From the NCBI GenBank assembly GCA_040830765.1, contig JBFOMH010000020.1:1-64000 (forward strand): DNA of 64,000 nt, written 5' to 3'. Below are positions 1-16,236 of this stretch, one piece after another. Within the stretch, counting starts at the first letter, position 1; every line of letters begins with the position of its first letter. The position numbers and the translations under genes are program-made. The stretch is from Puniceicoccaceae bacterium. Lineage in GTDB: Bacteria > Verrucomicrobiota > Verrucomicrobiia > Opitutales > Oceanipulchritudinaceae. A model generated the notes under the pieces. It was not told where the DNA came from, made no database searches, and worked only from the letters and a program-made list of their open reading frames with translations.

Positions 1-230
1 ATGCGGCCCTGCTGGGGGAAAAAATCCCGCAGCAGGGAGACGAGCACGCCCGAAAAAAGAAGGACAAAGGTCGTCGCCAGCCCCAGGGGGGGGGAGTTCA
101 TGGGGGTGTTGGTCACGGCCAGGACCGGGCACAGGCCCAGAAACATGACAAAGACGGGTTTTTCCCGCCACAGGCCCACCATGAAGGTGTCCCAGCTCAG
201 GGGTTCCGGCAATCGTGGATCGCGTACCAT
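1..230 (-). CDS. rnfE: Rnf complex subunit E (N-terminal part, runs off window edge)
   Basis: Not in the ORF track. Manual translation from ATG at 230 gives MVRDPRLPEPLSWDTFMVGLWREKPVFVMFLGLCPVLAVTNT..., matching the RnfE 'NP..LGLCP.LAVT' motif. Lies downstream of rnfG. Confidence 0.9.
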   Translation of the reverse strand, partial: MVRDPRLPEPLSWDTFMVGLWREKPVFVMFLGLCPVLAVTNTPMNSPPLGLATTFVLLFSGVLVSLLRDFFPQQGR

Positions 231-255
231 CAGTTATGCCCTTTCAAGTTGCTGT

Positions 256-945
256 TCATGGATTGAGAGTTGTGTTGAGGGATTCCTTGTAGCGCTCCAG
301 CAGCGGGAGCATTTCCATTGTGCTTTTACGCAGGCCGTCTCCAATAGCGGTCGAGGTGACGGTGGCGCCGGAGATGCCGTCGATCTGCCAGCCTTCAGTC
401 TTTTCACCGTTCTTGACGGTGACAATTGGGTTGGCGACCGCGGTTCCCTCCTCGTTCAGGGAAGCGTCGAGGCACTCGAAGTTGGCCAGGAAGTCCGGGT
501 CTGTCTCAACCTTGTCGCCAAGGCCGGGTGTCTCCGTGCTCTGAAGGACGGTAATGCCGATGACGCAGGCACTGTCCACAGAGTATCCGTAAAGGGTGGT
601 CACGACATCCTGGTAGCCCCGCGCGGAGGCTTCCATGGCCAGGCCGGCCAGTTGGCCCTCGGCATCGTAGCCGGCAAAGACATTGGCCTCGGCGATGGCC
701 TCATCCGGCAAGGCAACAAGACCCGTTTCATCGAGCTTGTAGTTCTTGCGTACACTGGCTTGGGGGAGGACCGTAAAGATAGCTTTTTCCAGGGCGCGTT
801 GCTTGTTCATGGCGATACGGGGCGCCGTGAGCTGGAAGGCCATGACAACGAGCAACCCGGACATCATGGCGATGAGACCGAGGGAAAAAATCAAGCGGCC
901 GCTGCTGGGCATGGTCGGCGGGGGAGTGGAGCCATTCTCGCTCAT
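256..945 (-). CDS. rnfG: Rnf complex subunit G (FMN-binding)
   Basis: One N-terminal TM segment, ETPGLG motif and flavinylation motif DGISGAT. Start taken as MSENG at 945, overlapping the rnfD stop. Confidence 0.92.
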   Translation of the reverse strand: MSENGSTPPPTMPSSGRLIFSLGLIAMMSGLLVVMAFQLTAPRIAMNKQRALEKAIFTVLPQASVRKNYKLDETGLVALPDEAIAEANVFAGYDAEGQLAGLAMEASARGYQDVVTTLYGYSVDSACVIGITVLQSTETPGLGDKVETDPDFLANFECLDASLNEEGTAVANPIVTVKNGEKTEGWQIDGISGATVTSTAIGDGLRKSTMEMLPLLERYKESLNTTLNP

Positions 946-1997
946 GCGGCCTCCTTTGGCTTGCTGGCGCCGTAGATGCGCGGCTGGGTGAGAAGACTGA
1001 TCAGGGGCGAACAGGCATTGGCAAGGAGGATGGCGTACATGACTCCCTCGTTCAGGCCTCCAAAAAGGCGAATGATGACCGTGATGAATCCAATCAAGGC
1101 GCCATATATCCAGACGCCGGCTGGCGTGACCGGAGAGGCCACCATATCCGTGGCCATGAAGACCGCCCCGAGCATCAAGCCGCCGGAGCAAATGGTGAAT
1201 ATCGGATCCGGATAAACGGCCGGGTTGAGAAGGTAGAAGAGACCCGAGATTCCGCCCGCAGTGACCAAGACACTGAACGTGATGCGCCAATCCATCATGC
1301 GGCGTGCGGCGAGGTAAAGGCCGCAGATAAGAATCAGGATGGCGGAGGTTTCACCAGCCGATCCGGCGGTTGTGCCAAGGAGCAGTTCCAGCGAATCAGT
1401 GGAGGCATGATCGAATTTCATGATGGCCAGCGGAGTGGCTCCGCTGAACCCGTCCGGGGCCACCTGAGCAATCCAGTCCTTGACCGGATTGGGCTTCAAG
1501 AAGGGCAAGGTCAGGGTGGAGGGAATGAATTCCGTGAACCGGTTTTCCACCATGTAGGGGGTCCAGGTCGTTATCGGTACCGTGAAGGATGCCTGGGCGA
1601 AGGCCCGCCCGAGAAGCGCAGGGTTCATGACATTGAACCCGAGGCCACCGAAGAACATCTTCCCGAGTCCGATCCCGGCAAAGGAAGCGACTGCGCCCAT
1701 CCAGAGCGGAAAGCCCGGCGGCAGGCACAGGGCGAGCAGGATCCCGGTAATGACGGCGCTCCAGTCCCCGATGGGCGTTTCCTTGCCCGATACCTTGGCG
1801 AGCAGGTGTTCCGAAAGGACGCAGGTGGCGGTACAGACAATTATCAGGGCCAGAACGCTGATCCCGAACTGGTAGATGGAAAAGGCACAGACCGGCAGCA
1901 GCGCATAGACGACATTGCGCATGATGACGTTGACCGGTGGGCTCACCCGCAGGTGCGGGGAGGTCCTTAACATGACACTGGGGCCTGGATCGCTCAT
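942..1997 (-). CDS. rnfD: Rnf complex subunit D
   Basis: SPH..., FGGLGFNVMNPAL, DGFSGATPL flavinylation site, GSAGETS, FMATD; polytopic membrane protein. Start at ATG 1997 overlaps the rnfC stop. Confidence 0.95.
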   Translation of the reverse strand: MSDPGPSVMLRTSPHLRVSPPVNVIMRNVVYALLPVCAFSIYQFGISVLALIIVCTATCVLSEHLLAKVSGKETPIGDWSAVITGILLALCLPPGFPLWMGAVASFAGIGLGKMFFGGLGFNVMNPALLGRAFAQASFTVPITTWTPYMVENRFTEFIPSTLTLPFLKPNPVKDWIAQVAPDGFSGATPLAIMKFDHASTDSLELLLGTTAGSAGETSAILILICGLYLAARRMMDWRITFSVLVTAGGISGLFYLLNPAVYPDPIFTICSGGLMLGAVFMATDMVASPVTPAGVWIYGALIGFITVIIRLFGGLNEGVMYAILLANACSPLISLLTQPRIYGASKPKEAA

Positions 1998-3376
1998 GAT
2001 GCTTTGGCTTTCTCGCGCATGGCTTTTTCGCGGTTGGACGATTTGGCGATTCGGAAGTACTGGACCAAGGGAATGTTGGAGGGGCAGACGTAGCTGCAGC
2101 AGCCGCACTCAAAGCAGTCCATCAGATGGTAGTCGGAGGCCATTTCCTCGTAACGGTGCTTGTAGGCCAGCTTGCCCATCTGCGACGGATTGAGGTGCAT
2201 CGGGCAGGCGTCGACGCACTTGGCGCAGCTGATACAGGGGTAAGTCGCCCGTGAAATCTGGTCGTGGGTGTCCTCTTCAGTGAGGACGAGGACACCACCG
2301 CACCCCTTGGTAATGGGCACGTCGAGGGAAGCGACGGTTCCGCCCATCATGGGGCCACCCATGATAAGGTGACGAGCCTGGCCGCTGAAGCCCAGTTGCT
2401 TGAGGATAAAGCGGAGGGGCGTACCGATCGGCACGATGAAATTGCCCGGATTCTCAACCCCGGGTCCGGTGATGGTGACAACCCGCTCGATAACGCCACG
2501 GTTCAAGGGCAGCAATTCACCCAGCTGGGCGGTCGAGGAGACATTGAAAACACCAAGTCCAACCGAGGAGGGGAAATTGCCGGAGGGGATCTCAATATCC
2601 ATGAGGGCCTTGGCCAGCATCTTCTCTGCACCCTGCGGGTACTTGGTCTTGACCGCCTTGACGGTTATCGACCCATCAGCCGGCAGCGCTTTTTCAAGCG
2701 CTTCCACGGCATCGAGTTTGTTGTCTTCCGTGCCGATGATGGCCTTTTCCGCCCCGAGGGCCTTCATGAGGATTTTGGTGCCGGCGATCAGATAATCGGC
2801 CTGTTCAATCATCACGCGATGATCGGTGGTCAGGAAGGGCTCGCATTCGCAACCGTTGATGAGGACCGTGTGGACGTTGTGCTCCTTGGGCGGGGACAAC
2901 TTGACGTGGGTGGGGAAGGCTGCCCCGCCGAGACCGACGAGGCCGGTGTCCTGCACCGCCTGGATGATCTCCTGCGGGGTCATCTTGTCCACGTCACGCT
3001 CCTGATAGAAACGGACTTCCTGGTTGTCGCCGGGATAGACATCAAGCAGCACGCTGGGTGTCTTTGGGCCCTTGGCCGTCGGCATCAACTCGACGCCCTT
3101 GATAACCCCGGTGGCGGGGGCATGCTGGGGAACCGAGACAAAACCCCCCGCCTTGGCGATGGGCTCCCCGCGGACAACCTCCTGGCCCGGGTGGACCAGC
3201 AATTGCGACGGGGCGCCGGCATGCTGGGACAGCGGAATGACCAGCCGGGGCGGGAACGGCAGGCGCCGGATCGGCTTGTTCGCCGTGTAGTGCTTGTTTT
3301 CCGTTGGATGGATACCGTGGGAAAATGAGCTCCGGAACCAGTGGGCCGGGTCAAGAAGTTTGGCTAAGCCACTCAT
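1994..3376 (-). CDS. rnfC: Rnf complex subunit C
   Basis: QHAGAP, GLGGAAFPTHVK, INGCECEPFLTTD, YPQGAEK, GGPMMG and two CxxCxxCxxxCP clusters. Confidence 0.96.
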   Translation of the reverse strand: MSGLAKLLDPAHWFRSSFSHGIHPTENKHYTANKPIRRLPFPPRLVIPLSQHAGAPSQLLVHPGQEVVRGEPIAKAGGFVSVPQHAPATGVIKGVELMPTAKGPKTPSVLLDVYPGDNQEVRFYQERDVDKMTPQEIIQAVQDTGLVGLGGAAFPTHVKLSPPKEHNVHTVLINGCECEPFLTTDHRVMIEQADYLIAGTKILMKALGAEKAIIGTEDNKLDAVEALEKALPADGSITVKAVKTKYPQGAEKMLAKALMDIEIPSGNFPSSVGLGVFNVSSTAQLGELLPLNRGVIERVVTITGPGVENPGNFIVPIGTPLRFILKQLGFSGQARHLIMGGPMMGGTVASLDVPITKGCGGVLVLTEEDTHDQISRATYPCISCAKCVDACPMHLNPSQMGKLAYKHRYEEMASDYHLMDCFECGCCSYVCPSNIPLVQYFRIAKSSNREKAMREKAKAS

Positions 3377-3416
3377 TGCTCCAATCCGTTACCGTTATTC
3401 ACAAGGTCAGGACTCC

Positions 3417-6400
3417 TTACTGGAATTTCTCCGCGCGCTTGATCAACTTGTCGACGCCCTTCTCGTTGGGATCAACCGGGGTGCCTGGATGAATGCACCG
3501 GCCGGTGCACTTTTCCGCGGCCCGGACGATGTCCTTGAAGGGGCCGCCCTTCGGATCCACGACATACGCCTTCTTGTTGTCGTCGTAGGCGAAGATCTTC
3601 TGGTTGATGTTGATACACTCGTCGCAGGACGTGCACTCCGTCTGGTCAATCCAGACCGGCTCGAATCCGCCTGCGGCGGCCGGGGCGGCCGGGCCTTCCG
3701 AACCATTGGTCGCCGGGACGGCCGCCGATGCGGCATCCGCGGAAACAGCCGGCATGTCGAGGATGGCCTTGGCCACGCCGCCTTCGCCGGTCAGCATGGA
3801 CATCAGTCCCTGGGCGAGGCGTTGAGCGGTCTCGTTGCGGACATTCTGGGCAATCTGGTCCGGATCCACCTTGCGGCTAAGGCCGGCGATACCCTTCATG
3901 GTACGCCAGAAGTCGAGGCGTTCCTCCGTCGAGCGGACAATCTCCTCGGCGACAAGGACCCGCATGAGCTGGTTCTTCTTGTCCACCGCCCAGATGTAGG
4001 GATAGAGGTCCTCGCGGTCCTCTTCGGAGAGTTCAAGGAACTCAGCCAGCGGAACCATGCTGTCGTTCCAGGTATCCTGTGGGGCCTTGCGGAAGTGCTT
4101 CCGGAAGCGGCCTTCCTGGACGGCAAAGTCGGCGAAGGTCATGGGCAGTTCCATGGACTGCTGGTTGCCCTCGTCGTCGACGTACTCCAGGTTGTAGACC
4201 GGCCAGTCAGTATCAATCGAGGGATTGCCCTCGAGGCTGAAACACTCTTCCCAGCTGTTGCCAGCGTCCGGATCGAAGGTGATGAGCGGATAGGCGCGGG
4301 ATTCCAGCGCCATCTTGCTGCGGTAGTGCGTCGAGTCATCGGGCACACCGTGTTCCGGCTGACAGACCGCATACACGTTGAAGAGGGCCGGACGGCGGGA
4401 GTTGAGCCCGTCGATAAAGCCCTCGATGAGGTGCGTGTAGTTGGCAATGTTGCCCTGCATGACATAGGCGGAACGGTGGGCCGCCCCGATGAGGGTCATT
4501 TCCTTGCGGATTTCCTCCTTGCCCTTCCAGGCCTTGCCGTACGGGGCCATGTCGGAAACCTGTCCGATGAAGCCTGAGGTACAGGCTTGGCCACCGGTGT
4601 TGGAGTAGACTTGGGTGTCGAGGACGAAGACCTTGATCGGCCGGCCCGACATGAGGGCGCGGGAGAGGTTCTGGAAGCCGATGTCGTACATCGCCCCGTC
4701 ACCCCCAACAGCCACCACCGGCGGGCAGAGGAGGTATTCCTCGTCCGTGAACTTGGCCCAGTTGAAGTATTGGAGGGATTCCTCGACCTTTTTGTAGTCC
4801 TCATTGCCTTCCAGCTCGGCTTCCGCCTGCCGGATGGCCTTGAAACCTTCACCCATGGAGCGCATGTGACCCTCGAAAAGACCGAGGGAAACGGACGGCG
4901 CGTCCTGGAAGAGGTGATTCGACCACGGGAAAGGATACGGGTTGTAGGGCCAGGAAGAGCCATAGACGGATGAACAGCCGGTGGCGTTCTGGATACCCAT
5001 GGCGGCGCGGCCGGCCTTGGTCGGGCCTTCTGTGTAACGCCACTTGAGGTCCTTCAGCTTGGCCAACAGGCTGGTGATCCACTTGAGCCAATCCTGGTCG
5101 AGCGGGGAACCTTCCTTGCCCTCGTCGAGGGCTTTGGCGAGGTCGGCCAGCTTGAGGTCCTTGTCGCTGCTGGCGTCAACGACCTTCTGCACGGCACCGA
5201 GGTCGCTGATATCGACCGTCTCGGCGGGCTTGTCCTTGACCCGGTTTTCCAGCCCGGCGATGGGCTCGTCGATCTTCTCGACCTGCTTCTTGACGCGACC
5301 CTGCATGAGGGCGGTCATGGTGCCGGTGAAAATGTGCAGGAGGCCCTTTTCACCACATCCGGTACAGGAACCGTCACCGCAGCTCATGGACTGGTAGACG
5401 GACTTGTCCATCAGCATGGTCTCGAGGGCACCGATCTTCTCGTCGAGGTCATCGATGCGGATGAAGTCCTTCGGCGTGGTCGGCAGGTCCTGCCAGAATT
5501 CCCACTCGTCGCGCAGTTTCTTGACCGAATCGTTGGTCTGTTCCTCGACCGTCAGGGCGCCGTCTTCACAGACGTCCACACAGAGCATACAACCCTTACA
5601 GGTGTACGGGTTGATGGTGATAGCATAGAGCCCGCCGGAACCCGCCTGGCCCTTCTCACGCTGGTCGTAATAGGGCTTGGTGAAGGCAAACTTGAACTCG
5701 CCGATGGATTCTTTGAACCAGGCAAATTCCTTTTCCATGTCCTCGGCTTCACCGTTGGCCCCGGCAATGGTGTCATTGATGGCCAGGTTGAGGAGGGGCA
5801 CACTGTTCAGGCTGGCGGTTTCGGCATTGGTTTCGGCAACCGCTTTGCGGAGGTGCTTCTCAACCGTGCGGACCGCCTTGGGCAGCAGCTTCACCTCATG
5901 GCCGGCCTTCTGGACCCGCTTGATGGTAGTGCTGAAGACTTCCTGAATGGGCAGGGCCAAGCCGGGGATGGCACTGTCCGGGCAAACTGTGAAACAGTCG
6001 CTACAAGCCGTACACTTCTCCGGATGCCACACCGGGTGGGTGAAACGGATCTGGGTCATGTCGCGGTAGACACCGGTGTTGGCCGGAATCAGGGCGAGAG
6101 CGTTGAAGGGATCGGCAAGGTTGTCGTTGGGACGACCACCAAGGTAGAAGCTACCAGTCTGTTCCCAGAAGCGATGGATGTCAGTCCGCGGGTCATCGCT
6201 GGCCGGCATGCGCTTGAGGACAGGGGGAAGATTGGTTTCCTTGCGGGTGACAGAAGTTGCCCCGTCGAGGGACTTCTCGGTGATCTCCGTGATTTCGTCG
6301 AAACCGCGGCGGACAACGCGCATGTTGTCTTCAACAACACGGGCGCCCTTGCTGCCGAACTTCTTGGTCACCTGTTCGCGGATGGCATTGAAGAGCGATT

Positions 6401-8372
6401 CCTCGTTCAGGTCGGCTGTCTTCATCAGCGTCGAGCCGGCGAAGAAGGCACCCTGGAAGGCAATACCCTGCATCCGGAACTGGAGTTCCGGGTCGGTGGC
6501 TTCTTCCCGGGCCACCTTGAAGGCGTCGAGGTAGAAGACCCGGATGTCGTTCTCGATGATGTACTGGCGCGCCGGTACCGGGAAGGAATTCCAGACTTCC
6601 TCGGCCGAATCCAATTCGCTCTGGATGATGAACGTTCCGCCCTTCTTGAGACCGAAGAGGGGATTGGAGTGACTGAAGACGTTCGGGTCCGGTGAAAGGA
6701 CGGCGTCGACAAAGAAGTATTCGCAGTTGATGCGGATCGGTTCCGGGGCGGCCGACAGGTAATAAGTGGTCGGCTGGCCTTTCTTCTCCGAACCATACTT
6801 CGGGTTGGCCTTGATGTCGTAACCCAGGAGATCGTAGAGGGTGATGGCCAGGTTCTTACCCGTGGTGATGGCTCCCCAGCCACCGACGGAGTGCATCCGG
6901 ACCGTTACCGCACCCTTTGGGAGCAGATTCGGGTTGGTGCTGCCCTTCAACGCCAGTTCCTTCACGGTGGGATAGGACTCCAGCAGCTTTTGCTGGTAGA
7001 TCTCATTCTTCGGCGAGGAAGGCTTGTCATGGATGAAATCGATGGAGAGGTAGAAGAACTTCTTCTTCTTGCCGTCCGGAAGCATGTTCTCCACGGCCCC
7101 GACAACCCCTTCGGGTTGAAGGTCGCGGCTTCCCATGCCGAAACAGCCGGAAAACAGCGTCGGGCTGTCCTTGGAGCTCTTGAAACTGGCATACTTGGGG
7201 TAGGGCAGTTCCTCACCGCGGCCGCAAAGACCGTTTTCCATGCACTTGCTGATGGTAGCGCGGATTTCCCGGATCAGCGGAAGGTCCTCGGCCAGCGGCT
7301 GGTCCGTGCGCTCGAGCACGGTCACGCCCTTGCGGCCCTTGAGGAGGTGGCTCAGGACATCGCCCGGGAAGGGACGGAACATCGTCATGTTGACCACGCC
7401 CACCTTCAGCTTGCGCTCCTCGCGCATGTAGTCGGCAACCGCTTCGGCAGTCCCGATAAGGCTGCCCTGGCCGATGATGAGGTAATCCGCATCCTCGCAC
7501 TTATAAGTGGCGACGCGGCTGTAGGGCCGTCCCGTCAGTTCGCTGTATTCCTTCATGCACTGGTCGGCGATGGCCGGGATGTGCTCAAAGAAGTAGGGCC
7601 GCTGGGAGGCGACGGACTGCATGTAGGCATCCTGATTCTGTACCGGGCCGGAAAGGACCGGGTTGTCGACATCCCAGAGAATGGGGATCCGGCGCCGGGT
7701 CTTGCCGTAGATCATCTCCTGGGCAGGCGTCGGGGTGTCGATGACGTCATCGGGACGGCCGAGGTACTCGGCAATCAGTTCCCGTTCGGGAACGAGCATT
7801 GTCTCGATGAGGTGGGTGGTCAGGAAGCCGTCCTGGCCGACCGCACCCGGGGTAAGGGATAGCTCGGCAATCTTGCGGGAGATGATGTTGAGGTCAGCCG
7901 CTTCCTGGGCGTTCTTGCCCATGACCTGGAAGAAGCCGGTATCGTCCATCAAGTGGTAGTCATCATGCCCGGCGTGGACATTCAGGGTTGTCTTCGTAAT
8001 GGCCCGGCAACCGACATTGAGAATGTACGGCAGGCGCTTGCCTACTGCCCCGTAGAGGGACTCGTGCATGTAGGCGATCCCCTGTCCGGAGGAAAAGTTG
8101 GAGGCTCGCAATCCGGTCATGGCCATGCCGGCGGTCACCCCGGCGGCAGCGTGTTCACCCTCGGGCTCAACAAAAATCAGGGGCTTGCCCGAGATGTTGA
8201 TATGGCCGCGAGCAGTTTCCTCGGCCCAGTATTCACCCATCTGGGTGGAAGGCGTGATTGGGTAGGCACCAGCAGCATCGCTGGATTCGCGCTCGCACAT
8301 GATAACGGCGGTGTTGCCATCCATGGCGGCTGGAATGCCCGGATATTTTACGGTCTTTTTTTCGGAAGCCAT
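3417..8372 (-). CDS. por: Large single-chain pyruvate:ferredoxin (2-oxoacid:acceptor) oxidoreductase with insertions and an extra C-terminal ferredoxin
   Basis: YPITPS, EGEHAA, GGWGAIT..K, KYGSEKKGQPT, two CxxCxxCxxxC motifs, SCTGCGEK, NATGCSSVY, GGDGAMYDIG (TPP) and YSNTGGQ; 1651 aa. Confidence 0.92.
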   Translation of the reverse strand: MASEKKTVKYPGIPAAMDGNTAVIMCERESSDAAGAYPITPSTQMGEYWAEETARGHINISGKPLIFVEPEGEHAAAGVTAGMAMTGLRASNFSSGQGIAYMHESLYGAVGKRLPYILNVGCRAITKTTLNVHAGHDDYHLMDDTGFFQVMGKNAQEAADLNIISRKIAELSLTPGAVGQDGFLTTHLIETMLVPERELIAEYLGRPDDVIDTPTPAQEMIYGKTRRRIPILWDVDNPVLSGPVQNQDAYMQSVASQRPYFFEHIPAIADQCMKEYSELTGRPYSRVATYKCEDADYLIIGQGSLIGTAEAVADYMREERKLKVGVVNMTMFRPFPGDVLSHLLKGRKGVTVLERTDQPLAEDLPLIREIRATISKCMENGLCGRGEELPYPKYASFKSSKDSPTLFSGCFGMGSRDLQPEGVVGAVENMLPDGKKKKFFYLSIDFIHDKPSSPKNEIYQQKLLESYPTVKELALKGSTNPNLLPKGAVTVRMHSVGGWGAITTGKNLAITLYDLLGYDIKANPKYGSEKKGQPTTYYLSAAPEPIRINCEYFFVDAVLSPDPNVFSHSNPLFGLKKGGTFIIQSELDSAEEVWNSFPVPARQYIIENDIRVFYLDAFKVAREEATDPELQFRMQGIAFQGAFFAGSTLMKTADLNEESLFNAIREQVTKKFGSKGARVVEDNMRVVRRGFDEITEITEKSLDGATSVTRKETNLPPVLKRMPASDDPRTDIHRFWEQTGSFYLGGRPNDNLADPFNALALIPANTGVYRDMTQIRFTHPVWHPEKCTACSDCFTVCPDSAIPGLALPIQEVFSTTIKRVQKAGHEVKLLPKAVRTVEKHLRKAVAETNAETASLNSVPLLNLAINDTIAGANGEAEDMEKEFAWFKESIGEFKFAFTKPYYDQREKGQAGSGGLYAITINPYTCKGCMLCVDVCEDGALTVEEQTNDSVKKLRDEWEFWQDLPTTPKDFIRIDDLDEKIGALETMLMDKSVYQSMSCGDGSCTGCGEKGLLHIFTGTMTALMQGRVKKQVEKIDEPIAGLENRVKDKPAETVDISDLGAVQKVVDASSDKDLKLADLAKALDEGKEGSPLDQDWLKWITSLLAKLKDLKWRYTEGPTKAGRAAMGIQNATGCSSVYGSSWPYNPYPFPWSNHLFQDAPSVSLGLFEGHMRSMGEGFKAIRQAEAELEGNEDYKKVEESLQYFNWAKFTDEEYLLCPPVVAVGGDGAMYDIGFQNLSRALMSGRPIKVFVLDTQVYSNTGGQACTSGFIGQVSDMAPYGKAWKGKEEIRKEMTLIGAAHRSAYVMQGNIANYTHLIEGFIDGLNSRRPALFNVYAVCQPEHGVPDDSTHYRSKMALESRAYPLITFDPDAGNSWEECFSLEGNPSIDTDWPVYNLEYVDDEGNQQSMELPMTFADFAVQEGRFRKHFRKAPQDTWNDSMVPLAEFLELSEEDREDLYPYIWAVDKKNQLMRVLVAEEIVRSTEERLDFWRTMKGIAGLSRKVDPDQIAQNVRNETAQRLAQGLMSMLTGEGGVAKAILDMPAVSADAASAAVPATNGSEGPAAPAAAGGFEPVWIDQTECTSCDECININQKIFAYDDNKKAYVVDPKGGPFKDIVRAAEKCTGRCIHPGTPVDPNEKGVDKLIKRAEKFQ

Positions 8373-8418
8373 AATTCTTCTCTTTCTGGTTTTGGTATTA
8401 GTAATTATCTAAAAGGGA

Positions 8419-9309
8419 TTAAGCTGAGTCGGGGCGAATGGGGAGGGGTTCCTTGCGGATGATCTTCTTGGCCGCTCCACCCTTGGTGGCCTGGCCATTC
8501 TCCATCCAGACGATGGCCCCGGTGGGGCACCGCTCGATGGGGATCCGGGTAGCGAGGTTGTTCTTGCTGTAATCGACGACAGCGAGGTTGTTCTTGATGC
8601 AAACAAGTCCTTCCGGGGCATCCATCGCACAGCGGGCGCAGCCAGTGCAGGCAACTTCGCAGTCAGCGAGGGCATCATCCCCCTCGGCGAGGCTTTTGCA
8701 GGCCACCCACAGCTGATGGCTGACCGGGTGCAGGGAAAAGAGGTCCAGCGGGCAGGCTTCGACGCAGTCGTTGCAGGCGACGCACTTGTCTTCATCGACG
8801 ACCGGGAGGCCATGCTTGTCCATATGAATGGCGTCGAAATCACAGGAAACCTCGCAATCGCCCAACCCCAGGCAACCCCACGCACAGGCCTTGCCACCAC
8901 CACCGGCGGCTACTGCAGCCCGGCAGGTGCCCATGCCGCTGTATTCAGCGCGCATGCGGGCGACATGGTTGCCCCCGGCGCACGCCAGGCGGGCGACGAT
9001 TTTCTCCTGATCACCGACCTCGACCCCGAGGTAATCGGCAATGAAAGTAACCATGTCCTTGGAACTGACCGTGCATTGGCTGGGATTCTTGTCCCCGGCC
9101 ACACAGGCCTCTGCGAATGCCCGGCAACCCGGGCTGCCACAAGCGCCGCAATTGGTCGCGGGCAGCATTTCCTCCACTTCCCCAATGCGCGGGTCCTCAT
9201 GCACATGCAATTTCTTGTTGGCCAGCGCAAGGACACCAGCGAGGACGATCCCAAGGCCTCCCATAAAGACCAGGGCGTTTATGACGAAGGTTAAGAGCTC
9301 GGGGTTCAA
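8419..9309 (-). CDS. rnfB: Rnf complex subunit B
   Basis: N-terminal TM, LPATNCGACGSPGC Fe-S motif, CAWGCLGLGDCEVSC, CVACNDCVEACP. TTG start preceded by GAAGGAG RBS. Confidence 0.93.
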   Translation of the reverse strand: MNPELLTFVINALVFMGGLGIVLAGVLALANKKLHVHEDPRIGEVEEMLPATNCGACGSPGCRAFAEACVAGDKNPSQCTVSSKDMVTFIADYLGVEVGDQEKIVARLACAGGNHVARMRAEYSGMGTCRAAVAAGGGGKACAWGCLGLGDCEVSCDFDAIHMDKHGLPVVDEDKCVACNDCVEACPLDLFSLHPVSHQLWVACKSLAEGDDALADCEVACTGCARCAMDAPEGLVCIKNNLAVVDYSKNNLATRIPIERCPTGAIVWMENGQATKGGAAKKIIRKEPLPIRPDSA

Positions 9310-9324
9310 GGGGGACTCCTTCGC

Positions 9325-10323
9325 TTAACTGATGGAGGGGAATCCATCCGTCCTGATTTCCCGGCCGTCTTTGGTCACAAAGACCGCTTCGACTCCGGGG
9401 CGTTCCTCGATCATGGCCCTGCCTTTATCCAGTCCCAGGAGGAAGACGGCGGTGGACAGGGCATCCGCCTGCATGGCGGAATCGGCTATTACTGAAACAC
9501 TGGAAAGTTCTTCGGGGGAATACCCGGTTTGCGGGTCCAGGAGGTGGTGATGGCGGTAATCCTCACTAAACCGGGTTTCGTAGTCGCCGGAGGTGGCAAG
9601 GCACATCCCTTTCAGCGGAGCTACCCCCATAAGGGCCTCTTGTTCGCGCGGGTGCTTGATGCCAACGGACCAGCTGTCCTTTTCCGCATGGGTGCCAATG
9701 GCTCCAAATTCTCCGGTGTCAATCAAGGCACTTTCCACCCCATGGGCCTTGAGTACCGCCGCAACGCGGTCTGCGGCGAAGCCTTGGGCTATGCCATTCA
9801 ATGACACCGCCTGACCACTTCTGCCTAATTGGACTTTTTCCCGGGAAATCGTCAACTGGCGGTAATCAACAAGGGCCAGGGCTTTCTCAATTTCTTCCGC
9901 AGTAGCGACCGTTCCTTTCTGGGAGTGCTCGAAATGAAGCCTCCAAAGCGGCTGGATTGTCACATCAAAAGCACCATTTGTAGCGCTGGAAAGGTTCCGG
10001 GAAGTCTCGAGCACCTCGACCAGGTAGGCATGTGGGTTGCTGAGGCTACCAGCCTTGTTCAGTTGGCTGATCTGGCTTTCCGGACGGTAAAGGCTCATGA
10101 TGTCCTCTACCTTGTCGAGTTCGGCGAAGGCGGCATCCAGGGCCGCGTTGGCTTCCTTTTCATCGGGATGGAAGACCGTCAGCGAAACCTGCGTTCCCAA
10201 GGCGAATCCCTTGCGGGACACCTTGACCATATGGGAAGGGACACCGGGTCTGCTCAAGCGCAGTCCAGCCAGGCCTGCCGCGGCTGTTCCGGCGAGGCAG
10301 AATATGAATGTGCGACGTTTCAT
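9325..10323 (-). CDS. apbE: FAD:protein FMN transferase (ApbE/NosX/RnfF family)
   Basis: GAFDVTI, LNGIAQGFAAD, LATSGDYE, HHLLDP.TG, ADALSTA. Start taken as MKRRTF at 10323. Confidence 0.93.
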   Translation of the reverse strand: MKRRTFIFCLAGTAAAGLAGLRLSRPGVPSHMVKVSRKGFALGTQVSLTVFHPDEKEANAALDAAFAELDKVEDIMSLYRPESQISQLNKAGSLSNPHAYLVEVLETSRNLSSATNGAFDVTIQPLWRLHFEHSQKGTVATAEEIEKALALVDYRQLTISREKVQLGRSGQAVSLNGIAQGFAADRVAAVLKAHGVESALIDTGEFGAIGTHAEKDSWSVGIKHPREQEALMGVAPLKGMCLATSGDYETRFSEDYRHHHLLDPQTGYSPEELSSVSVIADSAMQADALSTAVFLLGLDKGRAMIEERPGVEAVFVTKDGREIRTDGFPSIS

Positions 10324-10608: not shown

Positions 10609-11376
10609 ATGATTAGTCTAAAAATCCGCTTATTGATCTCAGCAGCGGGGATTTCGGCCGTATTGGCGGCGCCATCTTTTGCATCCCTTCTGGACGATAC
10701 TACCAACACCCTTGAGCAATGGGTGGAAACCGAACGTCAAATCAGTGTCTCTCAGGCTGAATGGGAGACGGAGAAAGCATCCATTGAGAACCTCATCTCC
10801 ATATATACCGAGGAGATTGAATCCTTAACCGGTATCATCGAGGCTGCTGAAAGTGACACCAGCGCAGCGGAAACGCGCCGGGCCGAGCTTCTGGAGCAGG
10901 ATGAGTCTGTCAAAGCCCTGGAGGCACAACTCGTTGATGCCCTGATCAAGACCGAGATCAACATCAAGAGCCTGGAGGCAACCCTGCCACCACCTTTGCA
11001 GGAGGAATTGAGCCCGCTCTTCAAGAGCCTGCCCGAGGATCCCGCCACTTCCAAGCTCGCCATTGGCCAGCGGATTCAGCCGATCGTCGCGATCCTGACC
11101 CAGGTCCAGAAGTTCAACCAGGTGGTTACGGTCGTGGAAGGGTTTCGGGAGTTCGAGGCCGGGAGTACGGTCCAAACCGAAATGGTCTATTTTGGGTTGG
11201 GAGCAGCCTTCTATGTTGATCAGGCGAACGAGCATGCCGGAGTAGCTGTCCCCGGACCGGATGGCTGGACCTGGAAGGATGATGATACCCTGGCTTCCAC
11301 CGTGCGGGCCTTCATCGACATTTACCGCGGGACCCAGCAGGCCCGGTATATTGAAATTCCGGTCTCTGTGAACTGA
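10609..11376 (+). CDS. DUF3450/TtpB-like secreted coiled-coil TonB-system accessory protein
   Basis: Signal peptide, coiled-coil, C-terminal 'YFGLG...W.W' region; first gene of an exbB/exbD/tonB operon. Confidence 0.75.
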   Translation: MISLKIRLLISAAGISAVLAAPSFASLLDDTTNTLEQWVETERQISVSQAEWETEKASIENLISIYTEEIESLTGIIEAAESDTSAAETRRAELLEQDESVKALEAQLVDALIKTEINIKSLEATLPPPLQEELSPLFKSLPEDPATSKLAIGQRIQPIVAILTQVQKFNQVVTVVEGFREFEAGSTVQTEMVYFGLGAAFYVDQANEHAGVAVPGPDGWTWKDDDTLASTVRAFIDIYRGTQQARYIEIPVSVN

Positions 11377-11417
11377 AGCAACGGCTGTTGACGAGAAACT
11401 TTCCACAAAGGATTCCT

Positions 11418-12833
11418 GTGAAAAATTTAATCCGACTTTCATTTATCTTATTCGCCCCCTTGCTCCTCAATGGAGTTACCATGGACGAGGCCAACGCCAG
11501 TGCGAAGGCTGACCTCGATGACGCCCTGAAGCGCTTTGCCGATTTGCAGGAAAGCATCAAGGAAGAGAAGATTCCCCTGTCCAAGACCTTGAACGAGCTG
11601 AAATCCGAACTGCGGGAAAAGCGGCGCGAAGCGCAGCGGGCCCAGCGGTTCAAGGACAACAGCACGGTCGACTTGAATTCCCTGCAGGACCGGGTAGTCA
11701 AGCGCCGTGAGCAGCTGGACTATGTTGCCAACCTGGTGGCGGACTACGGGGAACGGTTTGAGCGGGACATCGCGCTTCCCGAGCAGCAGTTATACAGTTC
11801 GCAAATCGAGGCCTTCCGGGCCGCCGCTGATTCGCCGCTCGCTGATGAGCAGCTCGGCAAGGCGATGCGCCTACTGGAACAGGTTTTCATCCTCAACACT
11901 TCCATTGATCGCTTCAAGGGAGTCGTAGGGGGACAGATTTTTGATGGAAACGCTGTGGTTTCCGACGGCGAAGTGGAAAGTGGAAAGTTTCTTCTTCTCG
12001 GCCCAACCAATTACTTCGCCAGCTCTGTCAGCGAAGAGTCAGGGGTTACCGTCAAGTCCGGACTCCTCCCCCCCGTCATCAGTATTGATGATGATCTTAA
12101 CCAGCTGATCCGCGATACGATCCAGTCAGGCTCGGGTGACATACCCCTGGACCCGTCCCTCGGAAGTGCCCTAGCGATCGCCGCCCAGGATGAAACGGTC
12201 TGGGAACACATCCAAAAGGGTGGCATCTGGATCTGGCCCATTCTTTTCTTCGCTTTCCTGGCGACAATCACTGCCATCTTCAAGGCCTTCGAAATTTACC
12301 GGGTCAAGATGCCCCGGCCGGGTTCCCTGCATGATATCCTGAAGGCCATTAATGAAGGCGATTCAGCGCAGGCCCTTGAACTGGCCAAGGCTGTTGAAGG
12401 TCCTGCACGGGACATGCTGGTCGACGCGGTCGAGCATAGTGACGAAAGCAAGGAGCTGGTTGAGGAAGTCATGTATGAGCGAATGCTTGAGGTGCAGCCC
12501 AAGCTGGAGCGACTACTGCCTTTTATTGCAGTCACCGCTGCCACAGCCCCTCTGATGGGTCTTTTGGGTACCGTCACCGGTATGATCAATACCTTCAAGT
12601 TGATCACCATTTTCGGCACGGGTGATGCCAAGCAGCTTTCCAGTGGTATTTCTGAAGCCCTTGTCACCACGGAGTTTGGTCTCATTGTGGCGATTCCCTC
12701 GCTCATCATGCACGCCTTGCTCAATCGTCGTGCCCAGGGAGTGATGGCAAACATGGAACGGATGGCGGTGGCCTTCGTCAATGGCCTTGCGGTCTCCAAG
12801 TCTTCCCAGCCTGCTTCAGCAGATGAAGGCTGA
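11418..12833 (+). CDS. Large MotA/TolQ/ExbB protein with periplasmic N-terminal domain (TtpC-like)
   Basis: Signal peptide and coiled-coil, then [14 protein letters not shown] and GISEALVTT. Start uncertain (11388 or 11418). Confidence 0.88.
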   Translation: MKNLIRLSFILFAPLLLNGVTMDEANASAKADLDDALKRFADLQESIKEEKIPLSKTLNELKSELREKRREAQRAQRFKDNSTVDLNSLQDRVVKRREQLDYVANLVADYGERFERDIALPEQQLYSSQIEAFRAAADSPLADEQLGKAMRLLEQVFILNTSIDRFKGVVGGQIFDGNAVVSDGEVESGKFLLLGPTNYFASSVSEESGVTVKSGLLPPVISIDDDLNQLIRDTIQSGSGDIPLDPSLGSALAIAAQDETVWEHIQKGGIWIWPILFFAFLATITAIFKAFEIYRVKMPRPGSLHDILKAINEGDSAQALELAKAVEGPARDMLVDAVEHSDESKELVEEVMYERMLEVQPKLERLLPFIAVTAATAPLMGLLGTVTGMINTFKLITIFGTGDAKQLSSGISEALVTTEFGLIVAIPSLIMHALLNRRAQGVMANMERMAVAFVNGLAVSKSSQPASADEG

Positions 12834-12886
12834 CCGGGAGTCCGGAGCACCGGTACTTTCGTGACCCGCCAACTGGAGTAACGACC

Positions 12887-13516
12887 TTGCAATCGATCTG
12901 GCAACAATTTCAAACGGAGTTCATGACTATCCTCACGGACGGGGGGATGCTCATGGTGCCACTGACAATTCTGGCCCTGACGATCTACTGGACTGCCTTC
13001 AAGTTGTACTTCTTCTTCTCGGAGCATCCGTTTTACAAGATCAACCGCAGCCAGTTGGTGGAATATGTTTTCAATCCCATTCTGGCCTCCGGGGAAATTC
13101 GTTCCGTGCTGGACTACACTCAGCACAAGGCGGTGGAAACAGTACCACAAGTGCAATCCCGTTTCGCCGAGGTGCTGAATGCCTATCTTGCTGAAGTGGA
13201 TAGCAAACGCGGTTATCTCCTGATCCTGATTACGACAGCTCCATTGATGGGGCTGCTGGGAACGGTCATGGGAATGTTGACCACATTCAGCGGCCTGGCC
13301 ATCAGCACTGGTGGCAGCACGGTGGACCAGATTGCCGACGGTATCTCCGAGGCACTCATTACAACCCAGACCGGGCTTATCATCGCCATTCCGGCCTACG
13401 TCATGGCGACCATGATCCAAAAGCGACGCAACGAGATGGAGGCGTGCCTTTCCACCATGGAGGCCCTCACCGTTCAACTATACGAAAAGAACAGCAAACC
13501 GGATATCAATTCATGA
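12887..13516 (+). CDS. exbB: ExbB/TolQ proton channel protein
   Basis: [13 protein letters not shown] and [13 protein letters not shown]. Confidence 0.9.
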
Positions 13517-13923
13517 AACGCAGACGGGTATTTTCAGCAAACAGGGGAGCGACCGAGGACATCAACATCTCGCCGCTCATCGACATGGTCTTCATCCTCC
13601 TGATTTTCTTCATTGTCACGACAGTATTCGTCGAGGAAACAGGGGTCGAAGTGACCAAACCGCAGGCTGCCTCCCAGATCCAGTTGGAGAAAAACAGCAT
13701 CCTGATCGCCATCACCGCAAACAACAATGTCGTCTATGGGGGACGGGACATCGGAGTCAACGGTGTCCGGGGTGTCGTCAAGCGCTTGGTCCAGGATGAC
13801 CCGCGGATGCCGGTCATCATACAAGCCGATGAAAACGTGCCCACCCGCATCCTGGTCCGGGTTATTGACGAGGCCAAGCTCGCCGGGGCCAACTCTGTTA
13901 ATATTTCGACTGAAGAGGGCTAA
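13513..13923 (+). CDS. exbD: ExbD/TolR
   Basis: [31 protein letters not shown] overlap with exbB. Confidence 0.93.
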
Positions 13924-14597
13924 TGCCAAACGGAAACAACAGGCTGGTCGGCTACAAGGTACCCCGATCCAACAAGTACGTCATCCGGATCGTCATCGCG
14001 ACGATTATCATGACGCTGGCCATCCTTGCCATCCTGCCCTTTACCCAGGCCCTTTCGGGTGATCCGCGTGACCGCAACCTGCGTTCCGTCGATGTTGCCA
14101 ACTTGCCACCCCCCGAGCCGCCTCCCCCGGAGCCTCCGCCTCCGCCGGAGGAAGAGGAGGAAGAGGAAATCGAGGATTTTGAAGAGCCGCCTCCGCCGCT
14201 GGACCTCTCGCAACTGGAAGCCGCCCTCAATCCCGGCACCGGGAACGCCATGGCGGGTGCCTTCGGGTTCGGTGGATTTGCCGTCCGTCCGGATTCCCTC
14301 TCCGAGATGCAGATTTTCGAGATCAAGGACCTCGACAGCCGTCCCAAGCGCCTCAAGGCAGTGGCGCCGGTTTATCCAATGGAACTGCAGCGGGCTGGTA
14401 TCGAGGGGACGGTCCGGGTGCGAATCCTGATCGACCAAGCCGGCTCGGTCCGGGTTCTCGAATTTGTCGATGTTGTCGACCGGCGCTTTATTGAGCCGGT
14501 CACCGACGCTGTTGAACGGTGGCAGTTTGAAGCACCGATGAAGGACGGCAAGCCGGTCCAGGCGGCCTACATTCTACCCTTACCCTTTCAATTGTAA
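13923..14597 (+). CDS. tonB: Energy transducer TonB
   Basis: N-terminal TM, Pro/Glu-rich linker, C-terminal PVYP..GIEG.V..W.F.P TonB_C domain. Confidence 0.92.
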   Translation: MPNGNNRLVGYKVPRSNKYVIRIVIATIIMTLAILAILPFTQALSGDPRDRNLRSVDVANLPPPEPPPPEPPPPPEEEEEEEIEDFEEPPPPLDLSQLEAALNPGTGNAMAGAFGFGGFAVRPDSLSEMQIFEIKDLDSRPKRLKAVAPVYPMELQRAGIEGTVRVRILIDQAGSVRVLEFVDVVDRRFIEPVTDAVERWQFEAPMKDGKPVQAAYILPLPFQL

Positions 14598-14615
14598 TTC
14601 CCACACCCAATCAGC

Positions 14616-15989: not shown

Positions 15990-15997
15990 TAGGCGGT

Positions 15998-16024
15998 TTC
16001 CCTTATAAATAAGGGGGTCTTTTT
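15998..16024 (+). terminator. Possible weak intrinsic terminator after the TPR gene
   Basis: CCCTTA-TAAA-TAAGGG stem followed by GGTCTTTTT. Confidence 0.35.
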
Positions 16025-16236
16025 GCAGGTATTCCCCTACTCAAAGCGGCGTTAGGTTGCATCGATTGCACCCTCATGCGGCCGTCAATCCCGCTTAAAT
16101 AAAGGGATTCGACCCGCGACACTCCACTTTTGGAAATGTTCAAAATTTCCACATTTTTCTTGATAGTAGGAGAACCTTAGATCAATATCCCGCCTGTTTG
16201 TAAGTGCATTAACCACTTCATAATAGGAATACATAC

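Follow-up and report, generated by a model that had tools for sequence, protein, structure and literature searches.

In the genome of this Puniceicoccaceae bacterium, a single operon combines the genes for an Rnf complex with the gene for an oversized PFOR-family 2-oxoacid:ferredoxin oxidoreductase, in the order apbE–rnfB–[PFOR with tethered ferredoxin]–rnfC–rnfD–rnfG–rnfE–rnfA–[small Cys-rich membrane protein]–fnr. The key feature, absent from the preliminary description of this DNA, is a single-[4Fe-4S] ferredoxin domain that is fused to the end of the PFOR on what its sequence indicates to be a flexible leash. The gene content suggests a dedicated module that would connect pyruvate and acetyl-CoA, through the tethered ferredoxin, with both Rnf (NAD and an ion gradient) and a ferredoxin-NADP reductase (FNR; NADP), the path and direction being proposed. 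We consider the chances about even that this operon encodes an Rnf variant with its own supply of, or outlet for, low-potential electrons, for which the oxidative, energy-conserving direction would be likely under anoxia.

The window, a stretch of 64,000 nucleotides, begins at the start of its contig (C20), and the operon is therefore divided between two contigs. The end of a second contig (C4) overlaps window positions 1–344 at 95% identity, and the operon runs on into it with rnfE, rnfA, a 75-amino-acid Cys-rich membrane protein and a plant-type FNR. All of the named operon genes were confirmed on the minus strand:

9325–10323, minus strand: apbE, which opens the operon and encodes an FAD:protein FMN transferase; Pfam ApbE, 259.5 bits
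8419–9309, minus strand: rnfB, 296 amino acids; TIGR01944, 87.1 bits (cut-off 68.7)
3417–8372, minus strand: PFOR-family 2-oxoacid:ferredoxin oxidoreductase, 1651 amino acids (P0001); POR_N, PFOR_II, POR, Fer4 and TPP_enzyme_C
1994–3376, minus strand: rnfC, NADH/FMN-binding subunit, 460 amino acids; TIGR01945, 491.8 bits (cut-off 245.95)
942–1997, minus strand: rnfD; TIGR01946, 285.3 bits (cut-off 207)
256–945, minus strand: rnfG; FMN_bind, 48.1 bits; TIGR01947, 93.6 bits, just below the cut-off of 102
1–230, minus strand: 5′ portion of rnfE, truncated where the contig begins, with its first 76 codons at 3–230; TIGR01948, 62 bits for 76 amino acids
Contig C4 (locus L003), 9224–9886, minus strand: rnfE; Pfam Rnf-Nqr, 215.1 bits
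Contig C4 (locus L003), 8653–9234, minus strand: rnfA; Pfam Rnf-Nqr, 186.4 bits
Contig C4, 8419–8646, minus strand: small Cys-rich membrane protein, 75 amino acids
Contig C4, 7503–8363, minus strand: FNR-like gene; NAD_binding_1 and FAD_binding_6; NF045929 FNR, 216 bits

The genes are tightly spaced, as the preliminary description had it, with gaps of 15 bp (apbE–rnfB), 46 bp (rnfB–PFOR), 40 bp (PFOR–rnfC) and 25 bp (rnfG–rnfE), and with 4-nt ATGA overlaps at the rnfC/rnfD and rnfD/rnfG junctions, where the start codons of rnfD (ATG at 1997) and rnfG (ATG at 945) overlap the preceding stop. Purine runs resembling Shine–Dalgarno sequences precede the PFOR and rnfC starts (GGAG ahead of the rnfC ATG), and AGGAGG lies upstream of rnfG. 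A sequence scan found 12 terminator-like sites against 11.4 expected, none of them in the intergenic gaps, and no promoter-like sites beyond expectation. The proposed rnfB-CDGE(A) order holds within the window for B, C, D, G and the start of E, whereas rnfA lies outside it, on C4.

The PFOR is a single chain with domains I-II-III-V-VI and four additions:

5658–5954, minus strand: insert A, residues ~807–905, between the two [4Fe-4S] motifs of the enzyme's built-in ferredoxin domain V
5013–5342, minus strand: insert B, residues ~1011–1120, between C1006 and C1133, two ligands of the proximal cluster
3663–3800, minus strand: Ala/Gly/Pro-rich linker, residues ~1525–1570
3420–3662, minus strand: C-terminal tethered ferredoxin domain, residues ~1571–1651, with one CxxCxxC...C cluster site

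Insert A is delimited by the correspondence of residues 710–806 to 1b0p 612–708 and of 906–965 to 1b0p 725–785, leaving ~83 extra residues; for insert B, 1b0p 785–830 corresponds to residues 965–1124, leaving ~100 or more. Their mean consensus frequencies are 0.54 and 0.62, respectively. The tethered domain matches Fer4_13 (from residue 1573 or 1575 to 1628) and, with E values of 1.3e-6 and 3.4e-7, the ferredoxin I of D. africanus (1dax), and its four cluster-site cysteines (C1580, C1583, C1586 and C1622) are invariant in 65/65 sequences. In the same 65 sequences the preceding linker varies from 26 to 72 residues (median 37), is rich in alanine (28%), glycine (17%) and proline (9%), and has a consensus frequency of only 0.29 with 24% gaps, versus 0.74 for the ferredoxin domain. 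The operon does lack a free ferredoxin gene, as had been noted, but the PFOR itself carries a fused one.

The enzyme has lost none of its catalytic or cluster ligands. Its best PDB matches are single-chain PFORs (6cin, E 6.2e-76; 1b0p, E 1.1e-71). Aligned with solved PFORs, the 1651-residue query matches in a number of separate segments that total just 245–259 bits. All 16 cluster cysteines, together with T40, R123, V132, D1225 and N1258, are invariant in 65/65 sequences; D1225 and N1258 belong to the GDG...N motif, and T40, R123, V132 and N1258 occupy the positions of T31, R114, I123 and N996 in the D. africanus enzyme. These alignments show each of the three internal [4Fe-4S] sites to be intact, as are the ThDP/Mg site and the residues with which solved PFORs bind pyruvate. 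With 388.6 bits on TIGR02176 the protein falls far below the cut-off of 911, so pyruvate is no more than its presumed substrate.

The homodimeric single-chain PFORs of D. africanus (1B0P, 1231 amino acids) and Moorella thermoacetica (6CIN, 1171 amino acids), which represent the NifJ/TIGR02176 type, share with this protein the domain order in one chain, the ThDP/Mg motif, the 12 cysteine ligands of three [4Fe-4S] clusters and the pyruvate-site residues. In contrast to these enzymes, the protein described here is ~420 residues longer, with ~88 extra residues spread over domains I–IV, ~83 between the domain V cluster motifs, ~100 between two proximal-cluster ligands and a 270-residue C-terminal extension ending in the tethered ferredoxin domain, and its gene sits within an rnf operon. 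A comparable case is the pyruvate:NADP+ oxidoreductase (PNO) of Euglena and Cryptosporidium, where a PFOR core likewise has a dedicated partner through which electrons reach pyridine nucleotide, in that case a fused NADPH-cytochrome P450 reductase domain. The protein described here is instead fused to a ferredoxin domain; the NADP-linked flavoenzyme, FNR, has a gene of its own, and a membrane ion pump would be the main partner.

RnfB comprises an N-terminal membrane helix, a PF04060 Fe-S domain and ferredoxin-like domains, with 20 cysteines invariant across 54 sequences. Its nearest solved chains are those of A. woodii (9eri_B, E 2.8e-49) and C. tetanomorphum (7zc6_B, E 3.7e-48), whereas the A. 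vinelandii chain (8ahx_B) aligns to its N-terminus only (E 1.3e-12), which places RnfB, by sequence, in the ferredoxin-oxidising A. woodii/C. tetanomorphum type. RnfC likewise matches 7zc6_C best (E 3.6e-108; 9ERI, E 9.9e-103). All six subunits of these two complexes (9ERI and 7ZC6) are encoded here, in the order B-[PFOR]-CDGEA; unlike in those systems, an enzyme gene separates rnfB and rnfC, and a conserved small Cys-rich membrane protein, often accompanied by FNR, follows rnfA. RnfD and RnfG each carry an SGAT motif, which we take to be a flavinylation motif, and apbE (ATG at 10323; signal-like N-terminus, RRTF) suits it, in keeping with the earlier suggestion that the operon brings its own flavin transferase. 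An apbE gene of the same orientation is found upstream in the own-genus loci as well, and in loci L017, L019 and L021.

The PFOR occurs in at least 593 species genomes, and a neighbourhood survey bore out the earlier suggestion that large PFOR genes near rnf may be widespread. Among the best 80 of at least 593 loci, a sample consequently skewed towards close relatives, rnfB lies directly upstream of PFOR in 69/71 evaluable loci and rnfC downstream in 62/63, while FNR follows rnfA in 34/52 and is absent from 18/52. The arrangement is present in 11/11 own-genus loci. The two loci without an adjoining rnfB have a Peptidase_M29 gene in its place, and in one locus three unrelated genes separate PFOR from rnfC. 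By record labels, the rnfB–PFOR–rnfC order extends over at least five phyla (Verrucomicrobiota, Spirochaetota, Acidobacteriota, Hydrogenedentota and Pseudomonadota). The suggested comparison of PFOR with RnfB and RnfC trees, extended to RnfD, revealed matching histories: 30–31 of 53 splits are common to the PFOR and RnfB/C/D trees, against at most 3 with shuffled labels, and one spirochaete, one Hyphomicrobiales and one Hydrogenedentota locus have the same foreign neighbours in 3–4 of 4 trees. These data indicate that PFOR and Rnf move as a unit. The PFOR-linked RnfD proteins of four proteobacterial hosts are 54–64% identical to the RnfD here, against 32–38% for the other RnfD paralogues of these hosts, pointing to a distinct lineage of PFOR-linked Rnf.

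The order itself is not new as an observation. In the Solemya velum gill symbiont, the rnf2 cluster has PFOR genes between rnfB2 and rnfC2, and pyruvate was proposed as the electron donor (Dmytrenko et al. 2014, PMC4287430). That locus (L091) is in our survey set, has the same arrangement and encodes a PFOR 64% identical to the one here; the sentence that describes it does not mention size, fused ferredoxin, FNR, small protein or distribution. In agreement with the preliminary description, we found no biochemical characterization of an rnf-linked PFOR in the literature.

We propose that pyruvate and CoA would be oxidized to acetyl-CoA and CO2, with electrons passing from ThDP through the three clusters to the tethered ferredoxin domain, which would swing to the polyferredoxin RnfB. 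Rnf, as in the clostridial/Acetobacterium type, would then deliver the electrons to NAD+ at RnfC and export Na+ or H+, and the FNR at the end of the operon could exchange electrons between the tethered domain and NADP(H). Each step would be chemically reversible. We favour the oxidative, energy-conserving direction under anoxia because the genome looks fermentative, with two [FeFe] hydrogenases and a single Rnf. The earlier idea of a dedicated chain from pyruvate to RnfB remains plausible, given the tethered ferredoxin and the tree matching those of RnfB/C/D, but its corollary that the chain replaces pyruvate dehydrogenase (PDH) is not supported: another contig (C14) encodes PDH E1 alpha (TIGR03182, 401.8 bits; cut-off 393.85), E1 beta and E2, so the module is not the sole route from pyruvate to acetyl-CoA. 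Searches of the same genome found no PFL, flavodoxin or canonical ~1200-residue PFOR.

Alternatively, the same module may run in reverse, with Rnf using the ion gradient to drive electrons from NADH (and FNR from NADPH) to the tethered ferredoxin, so that the enzyme acts as a pyruvate synthase converting acetyl-CoA and CO2 to pyruvate for the assimilation of acetate, storage polymers or C2 units. We regard this as possible but rather unlikely here. PDH already covers oxidative decarboxylation in this genome, and FNR ends the operon in many of the surveyed loci. By record titles, moreover, the hosts are largely sulfur oxidisers, purple sulfur bacteria, Rhodocyclales, Bryobacterales and chemosynthetic symbionts, many of them respiratory or aerobic, which the reverse direction fits better. 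Kentron, whose proteins belong to the same PFOR family (65% identity), has a highly expressed PFOR argued to be a pyruvate synthase (PMC6593406), but the text concerned names neither the highly expressed copy nor an rnf linkage. The fermentative look of the genome and its RnfB, whose type has been studied in anaerobes that oxidise ferredoxin, also weigh against reversal, and direction is not readable from any sequence feature.

It is doubtful that the genes are merely co-regulated, on account of the ferredoxin that both PFOR and Rnf handle, with electrons travelling through a free ferredoxin pool and the C-terminal domain serving as a fixed extra relay or oxygen shield instead of a shuttle to RnfB. 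In the PFOR of D. africanus, a C-terminal extension is said to shield the clusters, two of the 71 evaluable loci lack the adjoining rnfB, and one free single-cluster Fer4_13-type ferredoxin gene on another contig (C39) makes a diffusible carrier possible. However, this ferredoxin is just 22% identical to the tethered domain (51 residues, E 0.063), PFOR lies inside rather than beside the rnf genes across phyla with matching trees, and a fixed relay would not need an Ala/Gly/Pro-rich linker of such variable length. That the module ties another carbon reaction to Rnf through a 2-oxoacid other than pyruvate, as the sub-threshold TIGR02176 score and fragmented alignments might suggest, is very improbable given the invariant pyruvate-site residues, the lead of single-chain PFORs by a wide margin among PDB and NCBIfam matches, and a KorAB-type two-subunit enzyme encoded separately on contig C38.

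The layout that would support such a coupling of PFOR to Rnf through a tethered ferredoxin recurs in hundreds of bacterial species.

Anaerobic energy conservation and ferredoxin-dependent CO2 fixation both depend centrally on Rnf and PFOR, which are usually assumed to communicate through a free ferredoxin pool. In the window, a 1651-residue PFOR-family protein (P0001, to which all residue numbers refer) is encoded between rnfB and rnfC. Six-frame open reading frames, Pfam and NCBIfam bear out the gene list of the preliminary description (apbE, rnfB, PFOR, rnfC, rnfD, rnfG and the start of rnfE), and the operon continues at one end (L003) of contig C4 of the same genome:

9325-10323, minus strand: apbE, the first gene; ATG at 10323, then a signal-like RRTF N-terminus
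8419-9309, minus strand: rnfB, over the NCBIfam cut-off
3417-8372, minus strand: PFOR-family gene encoding P0001, 1651 aa (Pfam and NCBIfam)
1994-3376, minus strand: rnfC, over the NCBIfam cut-off
942-1997, minus strand: rnfD, over the NCBIfam cut-off; ATG overlaps the preceding stop (ATGA)
256-945, minus strand: rnfG, 93.6 bits against an NCBIfam cut-off of 102; FMN_bind domain; ATG overlaps the preceding stop (ATGA)
3-230, minus strand: first 76 codons of rnfE, the remainder being on contig C4
L003 9224-9886 (contig C4), minus strand: rnfE, Rnf-Nqr 215.1 bits
L003 8653-9234 (contig C4), minus strand: rnfA, Rnf-Nqr 186.4 bits
L003 8419-8646 (contig C4), minus strand: 75-aa open reading frame directly after rnfA, outside the window
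L003 7503-8363 (contig C4), minus strand: 286-aa FAD/NAD(P)-binding reductase, plant-type ferredoxin-NADP reductase-like (FNR), closing the operon

Apart from the ATGA overlaps, the gaps measure 15, 46, 40 and 25 bp, and purine-rich, Shine-Dalgarno-like sequences lie 5′ of the PFOR and rnfC starts. The assembly broke inside rnfE/rnfG, splitting the operon over two contigs: the last 344 bp of C4 (G000:C4:302373-302716) correspond to window positions 1-344 at 95% identity, with scattered single-base differences. Because the genome has only one RnfC/RnfD set, the ends of C4 and of the window's contig (C20, of which the window is the first 64 kb) represent the same locus; the six Rnf subunits are thus encoded together, a completeness that rests on this overlap. 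The gene after FNR lies on the opposite strand. RnfD and RnfG contain the flavinylation-type motifs FSGATP and ISGATV, respectively, S/T-G-A-T/S being the covalent-FMN attachment motif of these two subunits, and the flavin transferase gene apbE leads the operon. Divergent from apbE (10609-19242) are genes for a DUF3450 protein, two MotA/ExbB-family proteins, a TonB_C protein, a TPR protein and a 1001-aa TonB-dependent receptor.

RNA data were available as Logan contigs only, from three libraries recorded as RNA (X2, X5 and X6) and one guessed to be RNA (X1). Short contigs cover parts of the operon and bridge the PFOR/rnfC junction (3217-3535, with 15 differences in 319), rnfG/rnfE (228-914) and apbE/rnfB (9212-9400 and 9026-9513); none of those listed bridges rnfB/PFOR. 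Most of the bridging contigs diverge from the window by 4-8% and hence derive from relatives, DNA carry-over is possible, and a contig that spans two genes does not prove a single transcript. A consensus scan for terminator- and promoter-like sites gave no excess over shuffled sequences and none in the operon gaps, and is uninformative on transcription units.

The arrangement extends well beyond this genome. A word-indexed protein search returned at least 120 proteins of 1464-1666 aa, with 65-100% identity among the matches listed; Verrucomicrobia, Kiritimatiellota, Acidobacteria, Latescibacteria, Spirochaetes, Chromatiaceae, Kentron, Parabeggiatoa and SAR324 are among the sources named. When a single genome of each species was scanned, there were at least 596 pattern matches, 593 of them confirmed. 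We counted linkage by tblastn with the proteins of the window operon in the best 80 of at least 593 loci; these are the closest relatives of the query, and the figures may not hold family-wide. In this set, rnfB lies directly upstream of the PFOR gene in 69 of the 71 loci with enough flank (a Peptidase_M29 gene takes its place in L026 and L035), rnfC lies within 2.5 kb downstream in 62 of 63, and FNR follows rnfA in 34 of 52 evaluable loci. These counts, together with the number of species genomes that encode the protein, substantiate the earlier suspicion that the linkage is widespread. Strains in culture also carry the module (Thiocapsa roseopersicina DSM 217, Shewanella atlantica, Sulfurisoma sediminicola, Allochromatium palmeri and Pelagicoccus mobilis), and it is therefore directly testable.

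In a gammaproteobacterial metagenome-assembled genome (MAG; L093 15211-19859), PFOR and rnfC are separated by three same-strand genes, for a CHASE histidine kinase, a response regulator and a cofactor-independent phosphoglycerate mutase (iPGM). Four acidobacterial loci, of which three are labelled Bryobacterales/Bryobacteraceae, have a second PFOR-like gene (21-24% identical) and an apbE immediately upstream of the module, both on the opposite strand (L060 3501-7114, L066 3096-7104, L072 2665-6301 and L076 3429-7068).

Within its own lineage the PFOR protein is patchy. It is present in 11 of 12 other genomes of the genus, and all 11 other loci of the genus have the order rnfB-PFOR-rnfC. Among 28 genomes that represent other genera of the family and order, none gave a full-length match, the best matches there being at most 37% identical in frames of about 1200 aa or shorter; in a sample of the phylum, a match to the C-terminal 327 residues at E ≤ 1e-30 was present in 8 of 301 genomes (6 of 148 genera). 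One genome from another genus of the family (G013) encodes an 817-aa frame (G013:C17:16205-17233; L101 8203-9342) that is 33% identical to residues 1239-1651 and covers the counterparts of the extension, the ferredoxin domain and the last part of the ThDP domain, with no rnf genes found by tblastn within 18 kb. On another contig of that genome, a separate 819-aa frame matches residues 18-377, and the two frames are possibly a split relative.

To compare the histories of the genes, we built FastTree trees of RnfB, RnfC, RnfD and PFOR from 56 rows (the window and 55 loci with near-complete copies of all four; 25 incomplete loci were dropped). The comparison of PFOR with RnfB/C trees proposed in the preliminary description gave matching trees: each Rnf tree has 30-31 of 53 splits in common with the PFOR tree, where shuffled labels give at most 3, and patristic distances correlate at r = 0.73-0.82. 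Shared ancestry alone would yield much of this agreement, and the stronger point is three taxonomically misplaced loci, namely a spirochaete among Verrucomicrobia, a member of Hyphomicrobiales among gammaproteobacterial symbionts and a Hydrogenedentota locus with Acidobacteria. Each keeps the same neighbours in three or four of the four trees, although bin or label errors are possible. The cluster thus moves as a unit.

The Rnf complex of the module is a separate lineage. Four hosts carry further RnfD paralogues besides the linked one: Shewanella atlantica, the Solemya velum symbiont, Thiocapsa roseopersicina and Sulfurisoma sediminicola. Identity to the RnfD of the window is 54-64% for their linked copies and 32-38% for the other paralogues. 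RnfB and RnfC of the window are nearest to those of the A. woodii and C. tetanomorphum complexes, and 20 cysteines of RnfB are invariant in 54 sequences. In a Chromatiaceae MAG (L082 3214-8217), an ordinary rnfABCDGE (RnfC 38% and RnfD 34% identical to those of the window) sits directly upstream of rnfB-PFOR-rnfCDGEA, so that two Rnf lineages adjoin each other.

P0001 is collinear with single-chain PFORs, its closest solved structures (6cin, E = 6.2e-76; 1b0p, E = 1.1e-71). Domains I, II, III, V (two [4Fe-4S] clusters) and VI (ThDP) follow in NifJ order on one chain, as do the Pfam matches POR_N (32-261), PFOR_II (295-376), POR (497-692), Fer4 (780-1007) and TPP_enzyme_C (1218-1331). The best NCBIfam model, TIGR02176, scores 388.6 bits against an equivalog cut-off of 911.35, and we therefore file P0001 as a PFOR-family enzyme and not as a NifJ equivalog. 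In a MAFFT alignment of 65 full-length family members, 12 cysteines of three [4Fe-4S] clusters are invariant in all 65 (C787/790/793/797, C925/928/931/935 and C1003/1006/1133/1337; ligands assigned by alignment to 1b0p and its known cluster ligands). Equally invariant are D1225 and N1258 of the ThDP/Mg2+ motif GDG...N, and T40, R123, V132 and N1258, which align to T31, R114, I123 (replaced by valine) and N996 of the D. africanus enzyme, residues of its pyruvate site. Judged from this conservation, the PFOR-type catalytic core is intact.

Relative to 1b0p, P0001 carries four additions: about 88 residues dispersed over domains I-IV; within the built-in ferredoxin domain, about 83 residues (807-905) that separate its two cluster motifs; about 100 or more residues between the proximal-cluster ligands C1006 and C1133; and a C-terminal extension of 270 residues. 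The extension ends in a Fer4_13 domain (1575-1628) that resembles D. africanus ferredoxin I (1dax, E = 3.4e-7) and whose four cysteines are invariant in 65 of 65 sequences. The linker that precedes it is 26-72 residues long in the 65 sequences (median 37), with a composition of 28% Ala, 17% Gly and 9% Pro, and has a consensus frequency of 0.29, compared with 0.74 for the ferredoxin domain; such variable length, composition and low consensus are the signature of a flexible tether. No hydrophobic stretch of P0001 is long enough for a membrane helix (maximum 19-residue hydropathy 1.12).

The 286-aa reductase matches NAD_binding_1 (48.6 bits) and FAD_binding_6 (23.8 bits), both over the Pfam cut-offs, and in NCBIfam it comes closest to PetH-type ferredoxin-NADP reductases, at 216 bits where the cut-off is 600; by this likeness it would link the module to NADP(H). 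The 75-aa protein combines a single membrane helix with an RHPE(F/L)GP motif and a tail of the form CG..C.C...C. It directly follows rnfA in 41 of 59 loci when the threshold is E ≤ 1e-3, and in 44 when it is E ≤ 10. It belongs to a compact, unnamed family of 209 representative clusters at E ≤ 1e-3, the best 150 of which are 55-113 aa long. NqrM, the maturation factor of the Na+-NQR complex, which is homologous to Rnf, is similar in build, with an N-terminal membrane helix followed by a cysteine motif. By analogy, the 75-aa protein could be a maturation factor for the RnfA/E metal centre. None of 39 members reaches E ≤ 10 with the NqrM profile PF04400, one of 56 further representatives scores 18.1 bits, below the cut-off of 22, and hhalign of the family with two NqrM sequences gives a probability of 40% over 17 columns. 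An atlas search found only unnamed clusters, together with a FeoB-associated Cys-rich protein at 0.80, which serves as a lead only. Contig C39 of the window's own genome (L100 1200-1385) encodes a 61-aa Cys-rich, single-helix protein of the same build as the 75-aa protein after a feoB fragment, and 1 kb beyond it (2403-2636) lies the only small free Fer4_13 ferredoxin of the genome.

That ferredoxin, recovered by family searches, is 22% identical to the tethered domain; a regular-expression scan of the genome for a small clostridial ferredoxin gave a single, spurious hit. By best hits, the host is a verrucomicrobium close to Oceanipulchritudo, within the class Opitutia. The genome is 96.9% complete, and the module is its sole PFOR and its sole Rnf. 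Pyruvate formate-lyase, flavodoxin (PF00258) and a canonical PFOR of about 1200 aa were not found in it; it encodes a KorAB-type two-subunit oxidoreductase and two [FeFe] hydrogenases, and the host is probably a facultative fermenter. It also encodes pyruvate dehydrogenase E1 alpha (over the cut-off), E1 beta and E2, and the module therefore does not replace pyruvate dehydrogenase: of the initial proposal of an energy-conserving unit in its stead, the conserved PFOR-rnf linkage stands and the replacement falls. Elsewhere in the window are a 706-aa primary sigma factor (52790-54910), in which some 150 residues at the N-terminus match the histone H1-like HC2 family (48.8 bits), and a 641-aa fusion (59247-61172) of acetyl-CoA hydrolase/transferase domains with a C-terminal GNAT acetyltransferase domain.

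The module thus brings together, in compact and conserved synteny, an intact PFOR-type catalytic core that has a ferredoxin domain on a leash, a complete Rnf and its flavin transferase, and an FNR-like reductase. On this basis, the tethered domain would pick up electrons at the distal cluster and hand them to RnfB, RnfC would reduce NAD+ while the membrane part moved Na+ or H+, and the same domain could also serve FNR. We lean towards the oxidative, energy-conserving direction in this organism, giving it about an even chance. Its main rival, in which the ion gradient drives the enzyme as a pyruvate synthase, is rather unlikely here; in sulfur oxidisers and polymer storers, the majority of the family, pyruvate synthesis could well be its chief role. 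Co-regulation of the genes, with no channelling of electrons between their products, seems to us distinctly improbable, and a 2-oxoacid substrate other than pyruvate highly so. On a bolder reading, which we consider less likely than not, the oversized PFOR may belong to a distinct Rnf lineage as a stoichiometric peripheral subunit, docking on RnfB/RnfC through its conserved inserts, with its leashed ferredoxin shuttling electrons among the enzyme, RnfB and FNR with no free carrier. Such an assembly would act in one direction as a membrane-bound, energy-conserving pyruvate:NAD(P)+ oxidoreductase and, in the other, as a gradient-driven pyruvate synthase that works in microaerobic and aerobic bacteria, with the small Cys-rich membrane protein as an NqrM-like factor installing the Fe-S centre of RnfA/E.

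Explicit statement of the PFOR-rnf arrangement in the full-text literature was found in one paper, which places PFOR genes of the S. velum symbiont between rnfB2 and rnfC2 and suggests pyruvate as the donor (Dmytrenko et al. 2014, PMC4287430); gene tables in supplements may list the cluster. For Kentron, the text available discusses a highly expressed PFOR as a pyruvate synthase and lists Rnf, and does not link the two (PMC6593406), and the available parts of PMC10734462, PMC13664910, PMC10892978 and PMC11636981 make no mention of the linkage. In the main texts of freely available papers no biochemical study of the module was found, in line with the preliminary description, and no structural one. 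The module is a real, ordinary-looking and uncharacterised form of a known system. That the enzyme is encoded between two rnf genes in a conserved operon, and supplies a leashed ferredoxin of its own, suggests that the pyruvate/acetyl-CoA node is hard-wired to NAD(H), NADP(H) and the membrane potential. Should the module run in reverse, this would account for the formation of pyruvate from acetyl-CoA, with no glyoxylate shunt, in sulfur-oxidising symbionts, purple sulfur bacteria and polymer-storing bacteria, and would explain how ferredoxin-dependent carboxylation is powered in respiring organisms.
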